A stretch of 64,000 nt of DNA from a virus (lineage: Duplodnaviria; Caudoviricetes): positions 73,974 to 137,973 of the IMG/VR virus record IMGVR_UViG_2974511964_000001. The stretch is one strand, 5' to 3'. This document shows positions 15,908 to 61,322 of the stretch, piece after piece (the first letter of the stretch is position 1; every line of letters starts with the position of its first letter). The translations under genes were made by a program, and so were the position numbers. The notes under the pieces were generated by a model. It saw only the letters and a list, made by a program, of their open reading frames with translations, searched no databases and had not been told where the DNA came from.

Positions 15908-15971
15908 GTTGACAAAGCATATCAGAAATGGTATGCTTAATACATAGATTAAATTGAAAAGAGGTGATAAA

Positions 15972-17108
15972 ATGTATAAAGCATATAAAATTAGAATTTA
16001 CCCTAATAGACAACAAGAAACACAAATATTATTAACATTTGGTCATACTAGATTTGTTTGGAACCAAATGTTAGCCATGCAACTAGAACGCTATAAGAAT
16101 GGTGGTAAGTTTGTTAATGCTTTTGGTATGAACTACCTATTGACGCAGTTAAAAAAGGAGTACTCGTGGCTAACTGAATCTCCTAATCAAAGCTTACAGC
16201 AGGTATGCAAAGACTTATCAGATGCTTTTAAAAATCTGTTTGGACATAGAGCGAATAAACCAAAGTATAAGAGTAGAAAATACCCAAAGCAGAGTTATAG
16301 GTGTAACCAGAGGATATCGTTAGTAGACGGTCACCATATCAAGCTACCAAAACTTAAGACTGTGTACTACCGTTCTGGTAAAGAAATTAAAGGAAAAATT
16401 AAAAGTGTAACTATTCGTAAATCACCAACAGGTAAATATTATGCTAGCGTTCTGACTGAAATAGAGATTAAACCTTTAGCGAAAACCAAACAAGAGGTTG
16501 GAATTGATATGGGAGTTAAGGATTTAGCAATTACTAGTGATGGTACTAAATACAGAACTATCCGCTTTGATAAGTTATTAGCTGATAAGAAGCATTATTG
16601 GGAAGTACGGTTAGCAAGACGCCAAGCGTTAGCTAAGAAAGAAATAGCATGGGATAAACACAATAGAGTATTAGAACCCAGAGAGTTATCAGATTTTAGC
16701 AACTATATGAAAGCCAAACTAATGGTAGCTAAGTACAGTGAGAAGATAGCTAATCAAAGGAAAGACTATCTTCATAAGATTAGTACTGAGTTAGTAAACC
16801 AGTATGATGTTATCAAGGTTGAAGATTTGAAAGCTAGCAATATGATGAAAAATCACAAGCTATCACGAGCGATTGCTAATCAATCATGGAGAGAGCTACG
16901 TTTGATGTTAGAATACAAGTGTGAGTGGTATGGTAAAAAATTAGTGGTTGTTAGCCCATACAAAACCAGTCAAATTTGTTCATCATGTGGATATGATGAT
17001 GGCAAACATACCCTAGATGTTAGAGAATGGGTTTGTCCTAATTGTGGAGCTAAGCATGATAGAGATATCAATGCAGCTAAGAACATTCTAAAAGCAGAAG
17101 CAAAGTAG
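15972..17108 (+). CDS. tnpB: TnpB RNA-guided nuclease, IS200/IS605 family (no tnpA)
   Basis: KAYKIRIYP N-terminus; RuvC GIDMG / VEDL / DRD; CSSC..CPNC zinc finger. Confidence 0.92.
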   Translation: MYKAYKIRIYPNRQQETQILLTFGHTRFVWNQMLAMQLERYKNGGKFVNAFGMNYLLTQLKKEYSWLTESPNQSLQQVCKDLSDAFKNLFGHRANKPKYKSRKYPKQSYRCNQRISLVDGHHIKLPKLKTVYYRSGKEIKGKIKSVTIRKSPTGKYYASVLTEIEIKPLAKTKQEVGIDMGVKDLAITSDGTKYRTIRFDKLLADKKHYWEVRLARRQALAKKEIAWDKHNRVLEPRELSDFSNYMKAKLMVAKYSEKIANQRKDYLHKISTELVNQYDVIKVEDLKASNMMKNHKLSRAIANQSWRELRLMLEYKCEWYGKKLVVVSPYKTSQICSSCGYDDGKHTLDVREWVCPNCGAKHDRDINAAKNILKAEAK

Positions 17109-21498: not shown

Positions 21499-21566
21499 AA
21501 TAATTGACAAAGCATACCAAAAATGGTATGTTTAATACATATATTAAATTGAAAGGAGGTGAAAGT

Positions 21567-22703
21567 ATGTATAAAGCGTATAAAATTAGAATTTACCCTA
21601 ATAAACAACAAGAAGCACAAATATTATTAACTTTTGGACAGACTAGATTTGTTTGGAATAAAATGTTAGATATGCAATTAGAACGATACAGGAATGGTGG
21701 TAAGTTTGTTAACGCTTTTAGTATGGACTACCTATTGAAGCCACTGAAAAAAGAATATCCGTGGTTAACGGAGGCGCCTGCGCAAAGTCTACAACAGATA
21801 TGTAAAGACTTATCAGATGCTTTTAAAAATCTGTTTGAACATAGGGCAGGCAAACCCAAGTATAAGAGCAAAAAGTACCCAAAGCAGAGTTATAGATGCA
21901 ACCAAAGGATAATGTTAGTAGATGACCACCATATCAAGTTACCTAAACTAGGTTCTGTGTACTATCGCTCTGGTAGAGAAATTAAAGGTAAGATTAAAAG
22001 CGTAACTATCCGTAAATCTGCTACCAATAAATATTATGTTAGTGTCCTAACTGAAATAGAGATAAAACCTCTAGCGAAAATCAAGCAAGAGGTAGGTATT
22101 GATATGGGTGTTGCAGATTTAGTAATCACTAGTGATGGTAATAAATATAAAACAGTTAGATTTGACAAATTATTAGCTGATAAAAAACACTACTGGGAAG
22201 TACGATTGGCTCGTAGAAGGGCTTTAGCTAAGAAAGAAATAGCTTGGGATAAACACAATAATGTGCTGGAACCGAGAGAGTTATCAGATTTTAGTAACTA
22301 TATGAAAGCCAAGCTTATGGTAGCTAAGTATTCTGAGAAGATAGCTAACCAAAGAAAAGACTATCTTCATAAGATTAGTACCGAGCTAGTAAACCAGTAT
22401 GATGTTATCAAGATTGAAGATTTGAAAGCTGGTAATATGATGCGGAATCATAAGCTTGCTAGAACAATTGTTAATCAATCATGGAGAGAGCTACGTTTAA
22501 TGTTAGAATACAAATGTGAATGGTATGGTAAAGAGCTAGTAATTGTTAATCCATATAAGACCAGTCAAATCTGTTCTGACTGTGGCTATGATGACGGAAA
22601 GCATACTCTAGACGTTAGAGAATGGATTTGTCCTAATTGTGGTGCTAAGCATGATAGAGACATTAATGCTGCTAAGAACATTTTAAAGGAAGAAGCAAAG
22701 TAG
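21567..22703 (+). CDS. tnpB: TnpB RNA-guided nuclease, IS200/IS605 family, copy 2
   Basis: Close paralogue of 15972-17108; intact D/E/D RuvC triad; start at MYKAY after GGAGG. Confidence 0.92.
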   Translation: MYKAYKIRIYPNKQQEAQILLTFGQTRFVWNKMLDMQLERYRNGGKFVNAFSMDYLLKPLKKEYPWLTEAPAQSLQQICKDLSDAFKNLFEHRAGKPKYKSKKYPKQSYRCNQRIMLVDDHHIKLPKLGSVYYRSGREIKGKIKSVTIRKSATNKYYVSVLTEIEIKPLAKIKQEVGIDMGVADLVITSDGNKYKTVRFDKLLADKKHYWEVRLARRRALAKKEIAWDKHNNVLEPRELSDFSNYMKAKLMVAKYSEKIANQRKDYLHKISTELVNQYDVIKIEDLKAGNMMRNHKLARTIVNQSWRELRLMLEYKCEWYGKELVIVNPYKTSQICSDCGYDDGKHTLDVREWICPNCGAKHDRDINAAKNILKEEAK

Positions 22704-51232: not shown

Positions 51233-51665
51233 TATGATAACTTCCTTTCTTTTTCTATAATAAAAGGATACCATTTCTGGTATCCTTTGTCAACACTTAA
51301 TCGTGAGTTTCTTCATCGTAATGTTCGTATTCTTCCATGATATCCATAGTTTCATAAGCATCTTCAAGTTCACTATTTAGATAATCGTTTTCTTCCTCTA
51401 GTTCCTCCACTCGGTGTTCCAAATAGTTGATACGGTCATACATCTCCTGATTACTTGAGAATGGTTCCTTATTATTCATTAGTATTGCCCCCTAAGATAT
51501 AATTAATTGGTTTTGTTGCGGTTTCGCTGGTAAGCTTGATTTCCTTAGTCTTAGCCAAATTAAGATAGACAAACTCTTTGCTATTCCATATTAAAAATCT
51601 CCTTATCGTTTTATACACATAGTATACTATTAGATAAGGAGATTGTCAATAATTTTATTTAATTA

Positions 51666-52430: not shown

Positions 52431-53996
52431 AATAAAAACTTCCTTCTATATTTATTTAGGTCAATCTATGCTTAGACTGCCTTGTCCGCCTATAATGGCA
52501 TCTTTCCTATATTAATCTAACCTCTTAATCAAATCACTATATGAATAACTACCACGCAATTCTTTGTATGCATCCATGTTAGCCTTAATCCAATTACTAG
52601 CATCACCAATAGCTATATCTGATTGGTGGTCTAATATCTCTAATTGGCTGTTATACGTTTTTAGCCATAGTTCCATATCAATAATCAACTTCAACTGCTT
52701 ATCTGTCGCTAGTTTCAATAGGTTCACCCCAATCTATTCTGAATATTGGTTCTCATCATTAGTTCTAATAATAGACTTGATTACTGGTGAATCCATACAA
52801 TCTTCTAACACATGTACTGCATTTTGGTCAACGTAATATAACTCTTTAACTTTGTCAATATCTTTGCTCCAGAACACATTCATCATAGCTAACGATTTTT
52901 CTAGTTCTGGATGACCAGTTCCTAATGCAATTCCATAATCATCAGATAATCCAGTATCAATTAAGTCAACTGCCTGTTCCATCATTGTTTCATACAAATG
53001 GTTAAGTACACTTGATGAACTAGCCTTGCAAAAGCCAATTAGAGCGAACCCACCAGAATTAGTTTTTCCTAATTTTCGTTTTCCTTCGCTACTTTGGCTC
53101 ATGACATAATCTTTAATCTGATTATACTGAGCAGCAGTGACATACTTATTACGAACTACCATATGTGCCGGAAACTCTGGGTTTAACAACAGTGTCATCT
53201 CAACATATGGATAGACGTCTTTACTACGCTTGATAGGACTCACCTCTAGTCTTCTTTTACATCAACTGTAGCTGTAGTATCAGTAGTATCTTCCGCCGTA
53301 GCATCTACTGACTTATCTTCGAGCTTCTTAACTCTATCTGACAGAGTTGCTAATACCGCTTCTACATCAACCTTAGGCTTTGGTTCTCCTACTGTGTAAT
53401 AGATATCTAAATACCCTTGTTGAGGTGTGTCAGGTTCAATCAAGCGTGGGTCAATGAAGGTAGATGGATTACTAGTATCATCTGATAAGTGTACCGTTAC
53501 ATAATCCGTATTGAATCGCTTAGCTACTGATTCAATAACCTTTTCTACTAATGCATCAGACTTAATAGCATCTTCTCCATAGTTATTGTCATACAAGTTA
53601 CGTTTTAAGTCTGTTACTAGCTGTTTATCAAAGATAATACGCAAGTTACCAGTATTGCCATATCGGTGTTCTACTCGATTATCAAAGGCATTTGAGGTTA
53701 AGATAGTAGTTACTAAACCCTTTGCAATATCATCAAGCGGGTTAATATCTACTTGCTTACCTAATTCCTTTTTAGTAAATAATCCTACTCCTAATTCTGT
53801 AATCTTTGAGTATCCTTTATCAGATATCGTAGCCGTTAACCCTGAATCCGTAATTGTCAGCCCTTTGAAATGGATTAAATTAGCCCCATCAATAATTCCT
53901 TCTTTGTCGTCATACATTATAATATTACTTCCTTTCCTTAACATGTTAAGGATAACATGTATAGTATTCATTGTCAACACTTACTTAAAATTAATT

Positions 53997-54479
53997 TTAG
54001 GAGTTGTCATGTGTTACTTTAGCAGCCGCCGCACTAGCAATGGCACCAACTAAATCATCAACAAAAGTATTAATTCTGGTGTCGTCTGTATCCAAGTCTT
54101 TGATGACGCCCGTTTTTACTTTATCTACCATTCCAAAGGAACTCACACCAATTAATCCATATAGTTGACTAATTGATACGCCCAATACTTCATCTACAGC
54201 AAAGACACCTAGGTCATTACGAATGATAGATAATAGTGGTTCCTTAATCAAGTTATCCTGTGCTAATCGGTCTAATTCTAAGCCAGTCATAGCTAAATTT
54301 AGTATATCACGCTTGTGCATTACTGTAGTAACTGCTGTTAAACACTCATCTACAGTCAAAGTAGGGATATACTTGTATTCTAATTGGTAGGATATTTCAG
54401 CAATGTCATTTAAAGACACACCTAGTTCGCTTAGCCTTCCTACTACAAACTTATATGCTTTTGAATCTGGATATTTCAT
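53997..54479 (-). CDS. pgpA: Phosphatidylglycerophosphatase A (YutG-like)
   Basis: DEVLG..I..LYG.IG...FG.VDK.K.G.I..LD...TFVDDLVGAIASAAA. Confidence 0.8.
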   Translation of the reverse strand: MKYPDSKAYKFVVGRLSELGVSLNDIAEISYQLEYKYIPTLTVDECLTAVTTVMHKRDILNLAMTGLELDRLAQDNLIKEPLLSIIRNDLGVFAVDEVLGVSISQLYGLIGVSSFGMVDKVKTGVIKDLDTDDTRINTFVDDLVGAIASAAAAKVTHDNS

Positions 54480-54963: not shown

Positions 54964-55950
54964 TGATTATTTTCTCCAATCTTTTAACTCTGTTCATTAA
55001 ATCATTATTCTCTTGCTGTAACTTGTCTATTAAATTTAGTTTGTCTACAACTTCTTTTGATAGGACTTTTTCTCCGATAATCCCATCTTCAAAAATGGTA
55101 CTTTTGTCTATTACAGTTTGTTCTGGAATATCAGCAGTTCTTGTCGCTGCAATAATCCGTTCTGGAATACCAGCAGTTCTTGATGATATTAGTTTATTGT
55201 CCATAATAACACCCCTTTTTATATCTATATGTATATAAATAGCACTTAATATGTGTATGCTATTTATATGACCAAGGTTTAGATGAGAACTGGCTAATAG
55301 TTAATTAGTTGTTGTGAATTTGATTATATGGATTATATCCAGAAAGTAAGTCTGAAATCATTTCCTTCATACCTTCTATATTACTGATAACATAGTCCAT
55401 ATTCATGTTATCCTTAGGTTTTAAGCTATTAACTCCTACTGATGAGAGCACAGTATATATACTAATTTTAACCATATCTGCATACTTCTTAATCGGCTCC
55501 AGTAGCTCTGATTCACCAGCATCTAGCTTGTATTCCTTTGAATAGCTAAACATATTGTAAATAATATCCGACAGCCGATTCTTCTCACTGTCAGTAAAAG
55601 TAATATCATATTGACTATCAGATGTTTTCGTGTTATATGCTACTAGTGTTCTTTGCACTAGCCACCCAAAATTATAGTACAGAGCCTTCAAGATGTTACA
55701 AGCACTATTTGCTTGGTCGTCGGACCTAGAGGCAACTTTGATTGCGTCTAGCTGAATATCTCTTTTTCTCGCCATCTTAAATTGAAGACCCTCTAGAACC
55801 ACTACTTCTTGCTTATTTAATTTACTCATACTTACATTACCTACCTTTTATTTTTATATGCGGTACAACTCCGCTATATGTACCCTCGGCATAAAAGAAC
55901 ATGGGAAGAAAACGCCGAGGAACGTTTTACTTTATTGTAATTAAGCTACA

Positions 55951-56286: not shown

Positions 56287-56402
56287 TGTGCTTGGTAGGG
56301 ATTTGCACCCTACATGGTATCTTGACTTCAGGGTTGCGACCCCTGTCTACGCCATTGAAATACCGCTACGCCCGCTATGTCTACCTATTCCATCACAAGC
56401 AC
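56287..56402 (-). ncRNA. tRNA-like RNA with an expanded, non-canonical anticodon/variable domain
   Basis: Acceptor GTGCTTG/CAAGCAC-A, Leu-type D arm and T arm intact; about 60 nt nested insert between them. Confidence 0.6.
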
Positions 56403-56662
56403 ACGTTAGAGTGCTAAATATCCTTTGACTGTCGCTGGCCCTGCCGTCTTTTCATCGCTCTCAAACTACTATTGATAGCTTCCTACACTATCTCACTAAC
56501 TATAATTCGGCTTCGCAGATATATAACTGGTAGTTTATTGACTTGCCTAGGTCAATTACTAATCTTTGGTACACTTATTTATCGACCTGAATTACTCCTC
56601 CATCCATTTCAATTTCGCCTTCTTGATGTTCATTGTAAAACAAGCTTTCTAATGAAGGATAA

Positions 56663-56801
56663 GTTCCATAGATATGTCATATGGTTAATGCATACCTTTC
56701 GGGGGAACTACAGAATTTGTTATAAAAACTTCTTATAATAGTGACTCCAGTATATTTACCCCGCTTTTTTAATGACTTCCGCAATGGATTTACGTAATGT
56801 C
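56663..56801 (-). ncRNA. Third copy of the omega-like scaffold plus a single repeat (guide at about 56633-56662), abutting the tRNA-Leu 3' end
   Basis: 56763-56801 is near-identical to 59069-59107 and 60613-60651; repeat GTTCCATAGATATGTCAT at 56663. Confidence 0.75.
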
Positions 56802-56803
56802 TA

Positions 56804-56877
56804 TGCTCTCGGTGAGATTCGAACTCACACTGTGTGGCTTCTAAGACCACTATCTCTGCCAATTGGATTACGAGAGC
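56804..56877 (-). tRNA. tRNA-Leu(TAG) with short variable loop
   Basis: GTGGT-CTTAGAA-GCCAC; 5-nt variable region. Confidence 0.8.
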
Positions 56878-56884
56878 AATATAA

Positions 56885-57450
56885 GTGTCCGCATTGGTTT
56901 GCGTAGTATACTTTAACTTTTACGATATATTCTGCCATACACTAGTCAGCGCCTACTAGCAAGGAGCTACCAAGCTAGCTGTTGACCCATTATAATGTGT
57001 AATCCAGCACAATGACTGATAACTTTCAGGCGTCATTAGGCATATAATATTTATATAGTTATTTTTATATTTGTATTCCTAGATTTACCCTACTAATACT
57101 CAACTAGTTACTTATAGGAGGAGTTACCTCTATCAACTAGAAAATAGCTTACTGATTTCCCTACTTGGTTCTGCCAGTTATCACACTAACATTAGCTTAG
57201 GGTCTGCGTATTGCGCTACCGTAACCGTTGATGCATTTATCGACAAACTTGTATCTAGCACTGAATCCGTGATGGCTTTCTTTCACCACAACCTTTGTCA
57301 CTACAACAATAGGTTTATTAAATCTACTAGCTATCACTATATAGACGTAATACACATTATGACAGCGCTGCTAGGCGAGATTGACAGTCTCTTATACACT
57401 AGCTTGACACTATGTATAGTTATGGTTGTAATTCTTTCAAATTATCAACC
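56885..57450 (-). ncRNA. Candidate large structured ncRNA (ROOL/GOLLD-like)
   Basis: About 570 nt between tRNAs without a credible ORF; nested long-range helices 56971-56978/57399-57406 and 56992-57001/57351-57360; local hairpins. Confidence 0.5.
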
Positions 57451-57574: not shown

Positions 57575-57657
57575 CACAGGATACCGGAGTTGAACCGGTT
57601 CGATTAGGTCAGTTTTACTGTGCGCACCCTAACGTTCTACCGTTAAACTAATCCCGT
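57575..57657 (-). ncRNA. tRNA-like RNA with a 19-nt anticodon loop
   Basis: Intact acceptor, D and T arms; TTAGG-(GTGCGCA CAGTAAAACTG A)-CCTAA. Confidence 0.6.
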
Positions 57658-57772: not shown

Positions 57773-57860
57773 CACTCTTAGTAGGATTTGAACCTACATC
57801 GTTAAGTAGATTTGCTACTTACCGGGTATTCCGGCCACACTACCATTGTGCTATAAGAGT
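57773..57860 (-). ncRNA. tRNA-like RNA (Ser-like long variable arm, 5-nt anticodon loop)
   Basis: ACTCTTA/TAAGAGT acceptor; GCCGG-AATAC-CCGGT; AAGTAG-CAAAT-CTACTT arm; GTAGG-TTCAAAT-CCTAC. Confidence 0.6.
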
Positions 57861-58457: not shown

Positions 58458-58485
58458 ATTATACCACACTTTTTAGTATTTGCAA
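58458..58485 (-). promoter_or_regulatory. Promoter of the tRNA cluster
   Basis: TTGCAA-N16-TATAAT with TG extension. Confidence 0.6.
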
Positions 58486-58515: not shown

Positions 58516-59003
58516 TATCTAAAAGTATGCCATTTCAATCATGTATACACCTTTAGCAGTTAGACTGTTTTTGAGGCTTTAGACCCATAGATATGTCATT
58601 TAAAGCATACACATACATTTCTCAATTATCCTTCGCATGAGAGACAAACTCCAGAGGTATGTCATTTATATCATGTACATGCCTACCGTTGAAACAGATT
58701 ATCAAGACTCCTTGCTCCAAAGATATGTCATTTAGAACATTTAAATACCGTACCGGACAAGCGCCATCGTGGGAGGATAGCTCCATAGGTATGCCATTTA
58801 GAGCATGTACATACCTATTCTAAGCAATCTGCTTGAGTATTATCAGTCCCGTAGGTATGTCATTTAGAGCAGGTACCTTCACGGTATACTCTTCTAAACA
58901 TTTCTATGCTCCAGAGGCATGTAATTTAGAACACGTACATACCTATTGCGTCCTGCCATAATAGCAGCGGTGTGCTCCACAGACATGTCATTTAATGCAT
59001 ACC
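58516..59003 (-). CRISPR. Degenerate CRISPR array 1: 8 repeats, 7 spacers of exactly 30 bp
   Basis: Repeats (+ strand consensus GCTCCATAGGTATGTCATTTAGAGCATGTACATACC) start at 58516, 58582, 58648, 58714, 58780, 58846 (32 bp), 58908 and 58974 (fused to scaffold); all spacers unique. Confidence 0.9.
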
Positions 59004-59117
59004 CTTCGAGGGAACTACAAGACTTGTATTTAAGGCTCTAAATATAGAGGTCTCAGTATATTTACCTTGCTTTTTTAATGACTTCCGCAATGGATTTACG
59101 TAATGTCATTTGCTTAT
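59004..59117 (-). ncRNA. omega-RNA/tracr-like scaffold leading into array 1
   Basis: Conserved in three copies; GGTAAA..hairpin..TGTAGTTCCC core; TCCAT..GTCATT is complementary to the repeat. Confidence 0.75.
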
Positions 59118-59123
59118 GTATAA

Positions 59124-59152
59124 AGAATACCATGATTGGTATTCTTTGTCAA
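59124..59152 (-). promoter_or_regulatory. Palindromic promoter driving scaffold + array 1
   Basis: TTGACA-N17-TATTCT with TG extension; AAAGAATACCA..TGGTATTCTTT inverted repeat. Confidence 0.75.
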
Positions 59153-59175
59153 CACTTATTTATAATTTATTTTAA

Positions 59176-60303
59176 TTATTTTTTGAAAGCTTCATCTCTA
59201 ATGTTTTTAGCCGCATTGATATCACGGTCATGAATAACACCACAGTTAGGGCACGCCCATTCACGGTCTCCCAAAGTAAGTTTATCCGCTCCTTCTAACC
59301 GATATCCACAGTCATTGCACGTCTGAGATGAAGGATAGAATCTATCAATCTTCTTGACTTCTTTATCATACCAATCAGCCTTGTACTGTAGTTGACGAGT
59401 AAACTCATATAGTGATACATCCCCAACAGCTTTAGCTAGCTTATGGTTAGCCATCATTCCCTTAACATTCAGGTCTTCAATGGCAATTTTATCATAATTA
59501 ACAATAAGATACTTGCTAATATTATGCAGATATGCCTTGCGTTGGTTTTGTAAACGTTCATATACTTTAGCACGCTTAATCTTAGCTTTAACCCTACCCA
59601 TACTACCATTTTGTTTACGGGCTAAAGCTCTATCAGCTTTAATAAGCTTCTTTTCACTCTTTTTGATAGCGTGCATATTAGAAAACTTTTTACCATCACT
59701 AGTAATGACAAAGTCTTTAATTCCCAAGTCTAATCCAATGGCTTTATCAGTGTGATAATCAACATTCTTAAAATGGTCATCAGGTACTTCAAAGCCGATT
59801 GATACATAGTATTCACCAGACTTTGTCATTGAGACAGTTGCTGAGATAATTCGGCAATCATCTGGTAATGGCCTATGCAGCACAATCTTAATTGGTGAAA
59901 TCTTAGGAAGTTTAATATGGTCATCCTCTAGTCTAATACTTTTTTCACCTTTGTGAACTCTAGTCTTATAAGACCATGCACATTTATGATAGTTTTTAAA
60001 CTTGGGGAATCCTACCTTTTGATGTTTCTTAATTCCTCTAAAGAAGTTTTGATATGCTTGGCTTAAATTTGTTCTTGCATAGTCCAAACAATTGTTATCG
60101 CAATCTTTTAAAAAGTAGTTTTCTGGCTTGTTTTTAACCCAAGTAACTAGCTTTAATTTAGACTTTCCTGTTTCTTCATATTGCTGTTTGGCATCAGCTA
60201 ATAAAGCGTTATAAACAAATCTAGCTCCATTGATGTTTTTCCAAATTAGTTCTTGTTGCTCCTTATTCGGATAAATTCTATATTTATGTGCATAATTAAT
60301 CAT
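59176..60303 (-). CDS. tnpB: CRISPR-associated TnpB-like (Cas12f-sized) RNA-guided nuclease, 375 aa
   Basis: HKYRIYP; RuvC GLDLG / IEDL / DRD intact; CNDC..CPNC; start ATG 60303 (the track's start at 60366 lies inside a repeat). Confidence 0.9.
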   Translation of the reverse strand: MINYAHKYRIYPNKEQQELIWKNINGARFVYNALLADAKQQYEETGKSKLKLVTWVKNKPENYFLKDCDNNCLDYARTNLSQAYQNFFRGIKKHQKVGFPKFKNYHKCAWSYKTRVHKGEKSIRLEDDHIKLPKISPIKIVLHRPLPDDCRIISATVSMTKSGEYYVSIGFEVPDDHFKNVDYHTDKAIGLDLGIKDFVITSDGKKFSNMHAIKKSEKKLIKADRALARKQNGSMGRVKAKIKRAKVYERLQNQRKAYLHNISKYLIVNYDKIAIEDLNVKGMMANHKLAKAVGDVSLYEFTRQLQYKADWYDKEVKKIDRFYPSSQTCNDCGYRLEGADKLTLGDREWACPNCGVIHDRDINAAKNIRDEAFKK

Positions 60304-60359
60304 GTAATTTCCACTCTTTTCTTTTATTATTAGCCTTATTCTATAGTTATTCCAACATT

Positions 60360-60547
60360 GCTCCATAGATATATCATTTAGAGCATGTACATGCCTTTTG
60401 AGGCTTTAGTTCCATAGTTATGTCATTTCAATCATGTACATACCAATCTAACCTGGAATCATTATTTTGATGTTGTTCCATAGATATGTCATTTATAAGT
60501 GTATACCCTCCAAGCTCCAGAAGTATGTCATACGGCTAATGCACGCC
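60360..60547 (-). CRISPR. Degenerate CRISPR array 2: 4 repeats with spacers of 13, 30 and 6 bp
   Basis: Repeats at 60360, 60409, 60475 and 60514; same consensus as array 1. Confidence 0.85.
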
Positions 60548-60661
60548 TTTCAAGGGAACTACAGAATTTGTTATAAAGTTTCTTATAATAGTGATTCCAG
60601 TATATTTACCTCGCTTTTTTAATGACTTCCGCAATGGATTTACGTATTGTCATTTGCTTAT
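60548..60661 (-). ncRNA. omega-RNA/tracr-like scaffold leading into array 2
   Basis: Homologous to 59004-59117 and 56697-56801. Confidence 0.75.
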
Positions 60662-60667
60662 GTATTA

Positions 60668-60696
60668 AGAATACCATGATTGGTATTCTTTGTCAA
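60668..60696 (-). promoter_or_regulatory. Palindromic promoter driving scaffold + array 2
   Basis: Identical to 59124-59152. Confidence 0.75.
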
Positions 60697-60716
60697 CACT
60701 TATTTATACTTTATTT

Positions 60717-61322
60717 TTACTTGTGATTTAAGTCACCCTCAAATAAATCTTTTGAATATAGAAGTTTGGTAGCTAGTGTAGCTACTTTAGTATTAGCTAA
60801 ACTAACTTCGGCATCAACTGATTTAAGTTGGCCTTCTAATCCAGACTTCTTAATAGCAAGCAAATCAATCTGTTTCCGATAACTATTAATCTCTGAATTA
60901 ACTTGAGAAATATCGTTCTTGATACGCTTAGTTTCTACCCCAGACTTAGATTTAACCTCTTGCTGGTCATCAACCGCTCGTTGTAACGCCGTAATTAGTG
61001 ACCTCTTTATCGTCTCGTTCAAGTCTTCATATTCGATTCCAAAATCAACTTTAAATAATGTTATGATGGTCCCTTTCTCAAATACAAACACTAAATCGTT
61101 TAACATATAATAATCAGACGTTGAATGGCCCTTCCCTAACTGGCCCCTAAATACAAAATCAGCATTATCAAAGCTAGTCAAGATATCCTTAGTTACCTTA
61201 TCAGAGTTGCTTACTAAATACCTTTTGATTTCTCTATCGTCAGTAATACCATTCATTCGTTCTACCCAGCGTGACTTTGCATGTTGGGATACAGTTACTT
61301 CTACAGCTTCTTCATTTGCCAT
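60717..61322 (-). CDS. Hypothetical protein with C-terminal coiled coil
   Basis: SQHAKSRWVER N-terminal motif; own promoter. Confidence 0.6.
   Translation of the reverse strand: MANEEAVEVTVSQHAKSRWVERMNGITDDREIKRYLVSNSDKVTKDILTSFDNADFVFRGQLGKGHSTSDYYMLNDLVFVFEKGTIITLFKVDFGIEYEDLNETIKRSLITALQRAVDDQQEVKSKSGVETKRIKNDISQVNSEINSYRKQIDLLAIKKSGLEGQLKSVDAEVSLANTKVATLATKLLYSKDLFEGDLNHK

Follow-up and report, generated by a model that had tools for sequence, protein, structure and literature searches.

We report that a 64,000-nt stretch of phage DNA (hereafter the window), the right half of a 138-kb virus record, encodes a TnpB/omega-RNA system in which one guide cassette is coupled to a tRNA and probably acts in trans. 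On the minus strand, tRNA-Leu(UAG), the dinucleotide UA, a 139-nt scaffold and a guide follow one another, and this arrangement is probably a promoterless guide-RNA gene for a 375-aa TnpB, whose transcript would mature through tRNA processing, load onto that nuclease in trans and direct it against rival phages without the cassette. Sequence comparison and RNA structure support the reading of a tRNA-processed, trans-acting guide, and it is from these that we infer RNase Z cleavage and binding by the nuclease.

The window shares ~90% identity with Bacchae and Lpa804, two Lactiplantibacillus plantarum phages of the Herelleviridae (genus Harbinvirus), and its source is a lytic Lactiplantibacillus phage. 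All elements of the locus lie on the minus strand, in the order scaffold copy 2 with a mini-array, tnpB, scaffold copy 1 with an array, a tRNA operon with a ROOL RNA, tRNA-Leu, and scaffold copy 3. The covariance model and a promoter scan placed a promoter (60668-60696), a leader and scaffold copy 2 (60514-60651) at 60514-60696, followed by an irregular mini-array upstream of tnpB (60330-60513). The gene for the TnpB-type RNA-guided nuclease (375 aa; 59176-60303) was assigned by Pfam, translation and structure match, and it lies 2.4 kb from copy 3, the distance given in the initial annotation. Behind it stand a further promoter (59124-59152), leader and scaffold copy 1 (58974-59107), located in the same way and spanning 58974-59152, and a repeat-spacer array of 36-nt repeats and 30-nt spacers (58516-58973), four spacers of which have Lactobacillaceae plasmid matches. 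A TG-extended promoter-like site, TTGCAA-16-TATAAT, heads the tRNA operon at 58458-58485. The ROOL RNA (56872-57427; Rfam RF03087, 144 bits) is found directly upstream of tRNA-Leu in the same direction of transcription; its model match overlaps the 5' end of the tRNA by 6 nt, and the matching 10-kb loci of Bacchae and Lpa804 yielded no ROOL.

A 52-nt repeat family, with members in the window at 51264-51315, 53948-53999, 59123-59174, and 60667-60718, includes the promoter of copies 1 and 2 and also stands ahead of other phage genes; therefore, the scaffolds use a standard phage promoter type. Three RNAs of the window (56287-56402, 57575-57657, and 57773-57860) are tRNA-shaped, with normal acceptor and T arms and enlarged or rebuilt anticodon arms. 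In Lpa804, Rfam calls a 117-nt tRNA (L002 1964-2080).

Inspection of the junction between tRNA-Leu and copy 3 placed its elements at single-nucleotide resolution. The tRNA-Leu, our proposed 5' processing handle (56804-56877; Rfam 57.1 bits; 56803-56878 in ARAGORN), ends in the discriminator A at 56804, after which the strand continues with TA (56803-56802) and not with CCA. The homology of copy 3 to copies 1 and 2 begins at G 56801 (GACATTACG...), and the two bases between discriminator and scaffold nucleotide 1 form the UA linker (56802-56803). These positions bear out two claims of the initial annotation, namely that a third scaffold copy starts 2 nt past the tRNA-Leu discriminator and that this tRNA encodes no CCA. 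Directly upstream of copies 1 and 2 are TTGACA-17-TATTCT and a 16-nt leader, whereas copy 3 has neither, and a scan of the minus strand from 57336 to 56801, covering 535 nt upstream of copy 3, disclosed no promoter-like site. With this upstream scan empty, a promoter of its own was rejected for copy 3, as had been claimed from the outset. The 2-nt junction, the shared orientation and the 535 nt free of promoter-like sites also support the proposal that copy 3 is likely co-transcribed with the tRNA operon. This is the anatomy of a tRNA-gRNA cassette: a promoterless guide RNA gene that adjoins a tRNA 3' end in the same orientation.

The scaffold of copy 3 (omega-RNA/tracr-like; 56663-56801, by model match) comprises a structured core (56684-56801) and a repeat-like 3' module (...CTATGGAAC, last base 56663) that resembles the 36-nt array repeat at ~26/36 positions. 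Directly past the scaffold, TTATCCTTCATTAGAAAGC... starts at 56662 and opens a single guide (56633-56662), whose length of 30 nt is set by analogy with the 30-nt spacers. The original description of copy 3 as ending in one repeat followed by one guide is accurate at these positions.

The tRNA-scaffold junction recurs in other phages. Among scaffolds of the L. plantarum-phage type, ten loci carry the conserved promoter (TTGACA-17-TATTCT) and leader, and the remaining ones begin 2-4 nt past a tRNA 3' end, with the exception of L018, in which one promoterless copy has no recognisable tRNA upstream. The partners and their linkers are tRNA-Leu(UAG) with TA in this window, tRNA-Met (Rfam 45 bits) with ATA in Bacchae, tRNA-Ile(UAU) with TT and tRNA-Trp with TTTT in Lpa804, a type-II tRNA with a perfect 7-bp acceptor stem and the linker TA in contig L014, and a 117-nt tRNA-like RNA with TT in Gut-P1. 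The last of these, located upstream of the Gut-P1 scaffold, gave no ARAGORN or Rfam match and came to light only through its fold and its acceptor and T arm. The 3' part of this RNA type (T arm and acceptor strand) is found ahead of three more copies (two in L015, one in Bacchae), and an intact member without a scaffold is present in the window (56402-56287). Within the three complete genomes, 4/5 promoterless copies start 2-4 nt after a tRNA (chance ~1e-7). Across all phages and contigs compared, each of the eight copies linked to a tRNA is built as a single guide, in which the scaffold runs through the repeat module into the guide. The same cassette and guide stand behind different tRNAs in the window and in Bacchae (98.6% identity between copy 3 and the tRNA-Met-fused copy), and the shared homology begins at the discriminator. 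Copy 3 and its flank share 98% identity with Bacchae, a degree of conservation that by itself does not tell selection apart from a recent common origin.

Positions 1061-1412 of Gut-P1 (L005, ON117106.1) hold the tRNA-like RNA, TT, the scaffold, a 26-nt guide and tRNA-Trp. The guide of this phage is flanked by tRNA-type elements on both sides.

The ARAGORN-called tRNAs of the window, Bacchae, and Lpa804 all lack an encoded CCA. In the Firmicutes, CCA-less tRNA precursors are the substrate class of RNase Z; the B. subtilis enzyme reportedly cuts after the discriminator and is stimulated by a downstream U. The CCA-less tRNAs of these phages would fit RNase Z as the maker of the copy 3 5' end, and the suggested role of tRNA 3' processing gains support from the recurrence of the junction, at 2-4 nt, behind five other tRNA or tRNA-like partners.

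One could instead suppose that the guide is active and that the tRNA supplies transcription alone, with TnpB or another RNase, and not RNase Z, making the 5' end. The tRNA operon is a strongly read place, TnpB reportedly processes its own RNA, and the promoter-driven copies have ~12-16 nt of leader before G1. Either this extra leader does no harm, in which case an exact 5' end might be dispensable, or it is cut away by some other activity. Relatives in L. brevis phages have a hairpin and a conserved 16-nt leader, or a tRNA and 19 nt, before the scaffold, which is in line with this account. We nevertheless consider it unlikely, since read-through alone leaves the fixed junction distance unexplained (P ~1e-7): the 3' ends of six different tRNA or tRNA-like partners all lie 2-4 nt from the start of the scaffold, and tRNA-like 3' end remnants travel with the scaffold. 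Cleavage by a tRNA 3' processing enzyme is the reading that we prefer for the 5' end. As for the other end, no tRNA stands close behind the guide of copy 3; the tRNA-like RNA at 56287-56402, the next possible RNase P site, is 260 nt past the guide, compared with 26 nt in Gut-P1, so the 3' end would need other nucleases.

To describe the scaffold, we aligned 25 copies from the window phage, Bacchae, Lpa804, Gut-P1, L. brevis phages, and metagenome contigs. The consensus has 28 pairs, of which 13/28 show compensatory changes and, judged from this alignment, the scaffold is a structured RNA. Stem P1 uses nucleotides 1-3, which are the exact start of the tRNA-fused copies. All consensus stems are intact in copy 3, and a covariance model built from the 24 other copies, with copy 3 left out, recovered it at full length with 128.6 bits; the promoter-driven copies scored 135.3 and 131.4. 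In the 64-kb window, the covariance model gave no match beyond copies 1-3.

Some scaffolds are devoid of the repeat-like 3' module (L001 7251-7390; L002 4170-4309 and 5760-5899; L012). These are all promoter-driven and continue via a 38-nt linker into ordinary repeats. In sequence, they look like separate tracr-type RNAs, and the other copies look like natural single guides; the two scaffold forms coexist in one genome.

The guide of copy 3 matches record positions 104045-104074 of Lpa804 at 30/30 nucleotides, there behind TCCA and without a scaffold; the target search with 56633-56662 that the initial annotation had proposed as a check thus returned a motif-flanked target in a sister phage. 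All 60 nt past the copy 3 scaffold recur at 100% in Lpa804, where no scaffold accompanies them, and homology between the window and Lpa804 starts exactly at the first base past the scaffold. In Lpa804, the site is preceded by ...CAGTCCA and sits within an intact, unannotated 79-codon gene (P0122) with a good ribosome-binding site. In the window, the cassette replaces the 5' part of this gene, and only the last 29 codons are left (56575-56662). The exact breakpoint together with the 29-codon remnant identifies the guide as the insertion flank and Lpa804 as the empty site; the copy 3 guide is flanking DNA, as in TnpB omega-RNAs, rather than an acquired spacer. Identity of guide and flank holds by construction for any insertion, and only the exact breakpoint and the TCCA motif are informative. 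Against phages, the guide matched only Bacchae, which has the same cassette, and Lpa804, which has the empty site; against plasmids, it had no match.

In three cassettes, the homology breakpoint coincides exactly with the end of the scaffold. The single-guide cassette that lies downstream of tRNA-Gly in Bacchae matches window positions 55901-55872 behind CCCA, and also Lpa804; its empty site in the window (55872-55905) consists of CCCA and 30 nt, 29/30 of which agree. To the left of this insertion, Bacchae has a second, diverged target copy. The Gut-P1 guide, 26 nt long and directly followed by tRNA-Trp, matches Lpa804 behind TCCT. The flank downstream of the copy 3 guide is 98% identical in the window, Bacchae, and Lpa804 and is not specific to carriers of the cassette; hence, it was not counted as evidence of homing.

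Array spacers point to a second class of targets, since five of them match plasmids of Lactiplantibacillus and other Lactobacillaceae. Spacer 58878-58907 matches pLF24 and an L. brevis plasmid (29/30, 5' flank TCCA), spacer 58816-58845 matches L. plantarum plasmids (29/30, TCCT), and spacer 58684-58713 matches many rep_cluster_707 plasmids (27/30, the first 27 nt exact, TCCC). Spacer 58552-58581 has an imperfect match, over 28/31 aligned nt, to ~60 small plasmids including pWCFS101 (TCCT), and spacer 60445-60474 of the mini-array matches 133 plasmid records (29/30, TCCT). Both small rolling-circle types (pWCFS101) and larger MOBP rep_cluster_707 plasmids are among the plasmid targets. In a search of 50,697 phage records, the array spacers matched only the arrays of Bacchae and Lpa804, with no protospacers. 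The guide of the Lpa804 tRNA-Trp cassette gave no match to plasmids.

The eight independent targets, comprising three empty sites and five plasmid protospacers, have CC at -3/-2 in 8/8 cases and TCC in 7/8 (P < 1e-10, about 1e-11 or less); the putative target-adjacent motif, 5'-(T/C)CCN, is present at 8/8 targets. Repeats and scaffolds end in GAGC or GAAC, which leaves the phage's own loci without the target motif. Spacer 60445-60474, carried in the window by a promoter-driven mini-array, is the first guide of the tRNA-Ile-fused cassette of Lpa804; the tRNA-fused scaffold there consequently carries a guide with real targets. Such spacers common to different arrays indicate recombination. From these matches, the lytic phage appears to aim its RNA-guided nuclease at host plasmids.

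The signs of recombination raise the question of whether copy 3 is an inert scar, left when scaffold copies recombined with each other in a rearrangement-prone tRNA region and this one lost its promoter. The tRNA region is a mosaic among the three phages, spacers are exchanged between arrays, one Bacchae cassette stands behind a decayed tRNA-like remnant, and the TnpB-less phages Gut-P1 and SAC12B retain scaffold copies. A scar would not be expected, however, to match the promoter-driven copies in full-length model score with every stem intact, to have its junction position repeated in other phages, or to carry a guide with a correct TCCA-flanked target in a sister phage, and the tRNA-fused copy of Lpa804 bears a plasmid-matching spacer. 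We regard this explanation as improbable and retain copy 3 as a guide-RNA gene.

The nuclease that copy 3 would serve was characterized from its protein sequence. The 375-aa protein contains the Pfam domains HTH_OrfB_IS605, OrfB_IS605, and Cas12f1-like_TNB and the motifs GLDLG, IAIEDL, HDRD, and CxxC...CxxC, with the RuvC D/E/D triad and the zinc finger present. It aligned over its full length with the ISDra2 TnpB structures (E 1.5e-69). By these features, it is a canonical TnpB whose catalytic triad is intact. The same TnpB is found at 99% identity in Bacchae and Lpa804 and at 72% in L. brevis phage 3-521. Copy 3 is 80-89% identical to the scaffolds flanking this gene, with base pairs kept.

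Two further IS605-type TnpB genes are located in the window (15954-17108 and 21504-22703); they are 39-40% identical to the 375-aa TnpB, have 3' RNA regions of their own, and are both absent from Bacchae and Lpa804. Bacchae and Lpa804 have tRNA-fused cassettes but the 375-aa TnpB as their sole TnpB. The RNAs of the IS605-type genes align only distantly with copy 3, and together with the sole TnpB of Bacchae and Lpa804 this places copy 3 with the 375-aa nuclease. The claim that copy 3 acts in trans with this nuclease is thereby strengthened, in that scaffold identity, kept pairs and the gene content of the two relatives all suggest it.

It is very improbable that the cassette serves one of the IS605-type TnpBs or acts as a decoy soaking up the nuclease of a rival phage: two such genes are present, a short core is common to the scaffold and their 3' regions, orphan scaffolds occur in TnpB-less phages, and 2026 preprints describe phage guide-RNA mimics against Cas9, but copy 3 is close to the scaffolds of the 375-aa gene, the covariance model has no match at the IS605 elements, and the tRNA-fused copies of Bacchae and Lpa804 coexist with just one TnpB. 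An assignment of copy 3 as omega-RNA of the two IS605-type TnpBs was rejected on the distant alignment and the missing model match. A protein-less IS200/IS605 mini-element (PATE) was also rejected, as the copies have no left end in common and the left junction lacks a target motif: the bases before scaffold nucleotide 1 are ATA, ATT, TTT or AAT, not TCCN. A Cas12 'hacker' (Cas12p, bioRxiv 10.1101/2025.01.20.633832) was rejected because that protein has 500-700 aa and a different RNA, and tRNA is not mentioned. The phage system also differs from members of IS200/IS605: its scaffold starts past the tnpB stop codon behind its own promoter, and its left boundary varies between tRNA and promoter. 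Neither TnpA (Y1 transposase) nor Cas1 was detected in the phage genome.

A mechanism can be proposed for the cassette. The transcript of the tRNA operon would include it, as suggested by its anatomy, and host RNase Z, the trimmer of CCA-less tRNA precursors, would cut past the discriminator and leave a scaffold RNA with a 2-nt overhang (UA) before stem P1. Going by work on B. subtilis, so short an overhang in front of a stem should also protect the 5'-monophosphate end of this RNA from RNase J1. The 3' side of the guide would be trimmed to the protein-protected part, like other omega-RNAs, and, given the scaffold identity, copy 3 RNA likely loads in trans onto the TnpB encoded 2.4 kb away. 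The complex would then recognise cassette-free genomes at the TCCA-flanked site in the 79-codon gene, which is seen in the sequence of Lpa804-type phages. In a mixed infection, cutting could exclude the rival allele or copy the cassette into the rival, which would amount to RNA-guided homing. The phage's own copy would be safe because the scaffold end (GAAC) takes the place of the target-adjacent motif.

A wider scenario is plausible, if somewhat doubtful, in which a lineage of lytic Lactobacillaceae phages maintains an exchangeable pool of guides for one TnpB nuclease in the tRNA operon that host tRNA enzymes mature, in the manner of a natural polycistronic tRNA-gRNA gene, with homing into rivals, including the nuclease-less Gut-P1, and arrays that destroy plasmids. 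No TnpB homologue was found in Gut-P1 or SAC12B (L006), although a scaffold cassette is present in both; these cassettes fit spread by homing, or a decoy role.

If the proposed reading holds, the engineered trick of placing a guide behind a tRNA would gain a natural precedent; no natural tRNA-guide fusion was found for any RNA-guided nuclease in a full-text literature search. The locus also suggests a route from a transposon nuclease to a multi-guide system, with scaffolds freed from the gene, driven by a promoter or a tRNA, and used in trans. It offers a small nuclease (375 aa) with a TCCN motif deduced from sequence, natural single-guide RNAs, and natural targets. RNA-guided marker exclusion is predicted between co-infecting phages of dairy and vegetable fermentations, as is phage attack on Lactiplantibacillus plasmids, which bears on the stability of starter cultures.

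Comparison with known systems disclosed a close resemblance to ISDra2-type TnpB/omega-RNA (IS200/IS605 OMEGA; PDB 8bf8, 8exa, 8h1j), with which the phage protein shares the full-length alignment. In both, a structured scaffold is followed directly by a guide equal to the DNA flanking the element, and the target-adjacent motif lies 5'. Homing by TnpB is known, with empty sites as the natural targets (Meers et al., PMC10055086), and empty sites likewise appear to be natural targets of the phage cassette. In contrast to OMEGA, the phage scaffold does not overlap the tnpB 3' end and is preceded by either a promoter of its own or a tRNA; TnpA and a left end are both missing; several scaffold copies per phage genome would serve one nuclease in trans, with repeat-spacer arrays attached; and the motif is TCCN, compared with TTGAT.

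TnpB relatives linked to arrays are known as the V-U groups (Altae-Tran et al. 2023, PMC10691335) and TranC (LaTranC, PDB 9jfo/9jfq). As in these, the phage has an effector of TnpB size beside arrays whose repeats derive from the 3' part of the scaffold, its spacers match plasmids, and it is without an adaptation module, as no Cas1 is present; the adaptation genes cas1/cas2 are likewise missing from many V-U systems (PMC10691335). Unlike TranC, only the C-terminal third of the phage protein matches LaTranC (E 5.8e-31), and the protein is closer to a plain TnpB. The presence of single-guide cassettes inside a tRNA operon is a further difference from TranC and V-U systems, and tRNA is not mentioned in PMC10691335.

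A functional parallel is provided by SegB of T4, a free-standing homing endonuclease in a phage tRNA region (PMC2330249, as cited in PMC13565253). According to that citation, a nuclease of this type cuts the tRNA region of co-infecting relatives, and its own region is preferentially inherited (PMC2330249 via PMC13565253). As SegB is presented there, the phage TnpB resembles it in being encoded beside a phage tRNA cluster. On the same account, SegB owes its specificity to protein-DNA contacts, whereas that of the phage TnpB would reside in exchangeable RNA cassettes.

Polycistronic tRNA-gRNA genes (PTG) have reportedly been engineered. A second engineered device is the Haloferax icrRNA, which is flanked by tRNA-like elements (PMC4326828). 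Like both, the phage cassette has its guide RNA directly past a tRNA, such that cellular tRNA-processing enzymes would make the 5' end, and the Gut-P1 guide (26 nt) is, as in PTG, also directly followed by a tRNA. The phage cassette differs from PTG and icrRNA in being natural, in its effector, TnpB instead of Cas9 or Cascade, and in having no close downstream tRNA in the window. Among natural units, the tRNA-miRNA units of MHV68 and the tRNA-snoRNA genes of plants are released by RNase Z. There, too, a tRNA transcript carries a small functional RNA, which tRNA 3' processing sets free, as proposed for copy 3; these units differ in being eukaryotic and transcribed by polymerase III, and their cargo is no guide for a DNA nuclease. 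Overall, the cassette appears to be the natural counterpart of the engineered tRNA-gRNA design.
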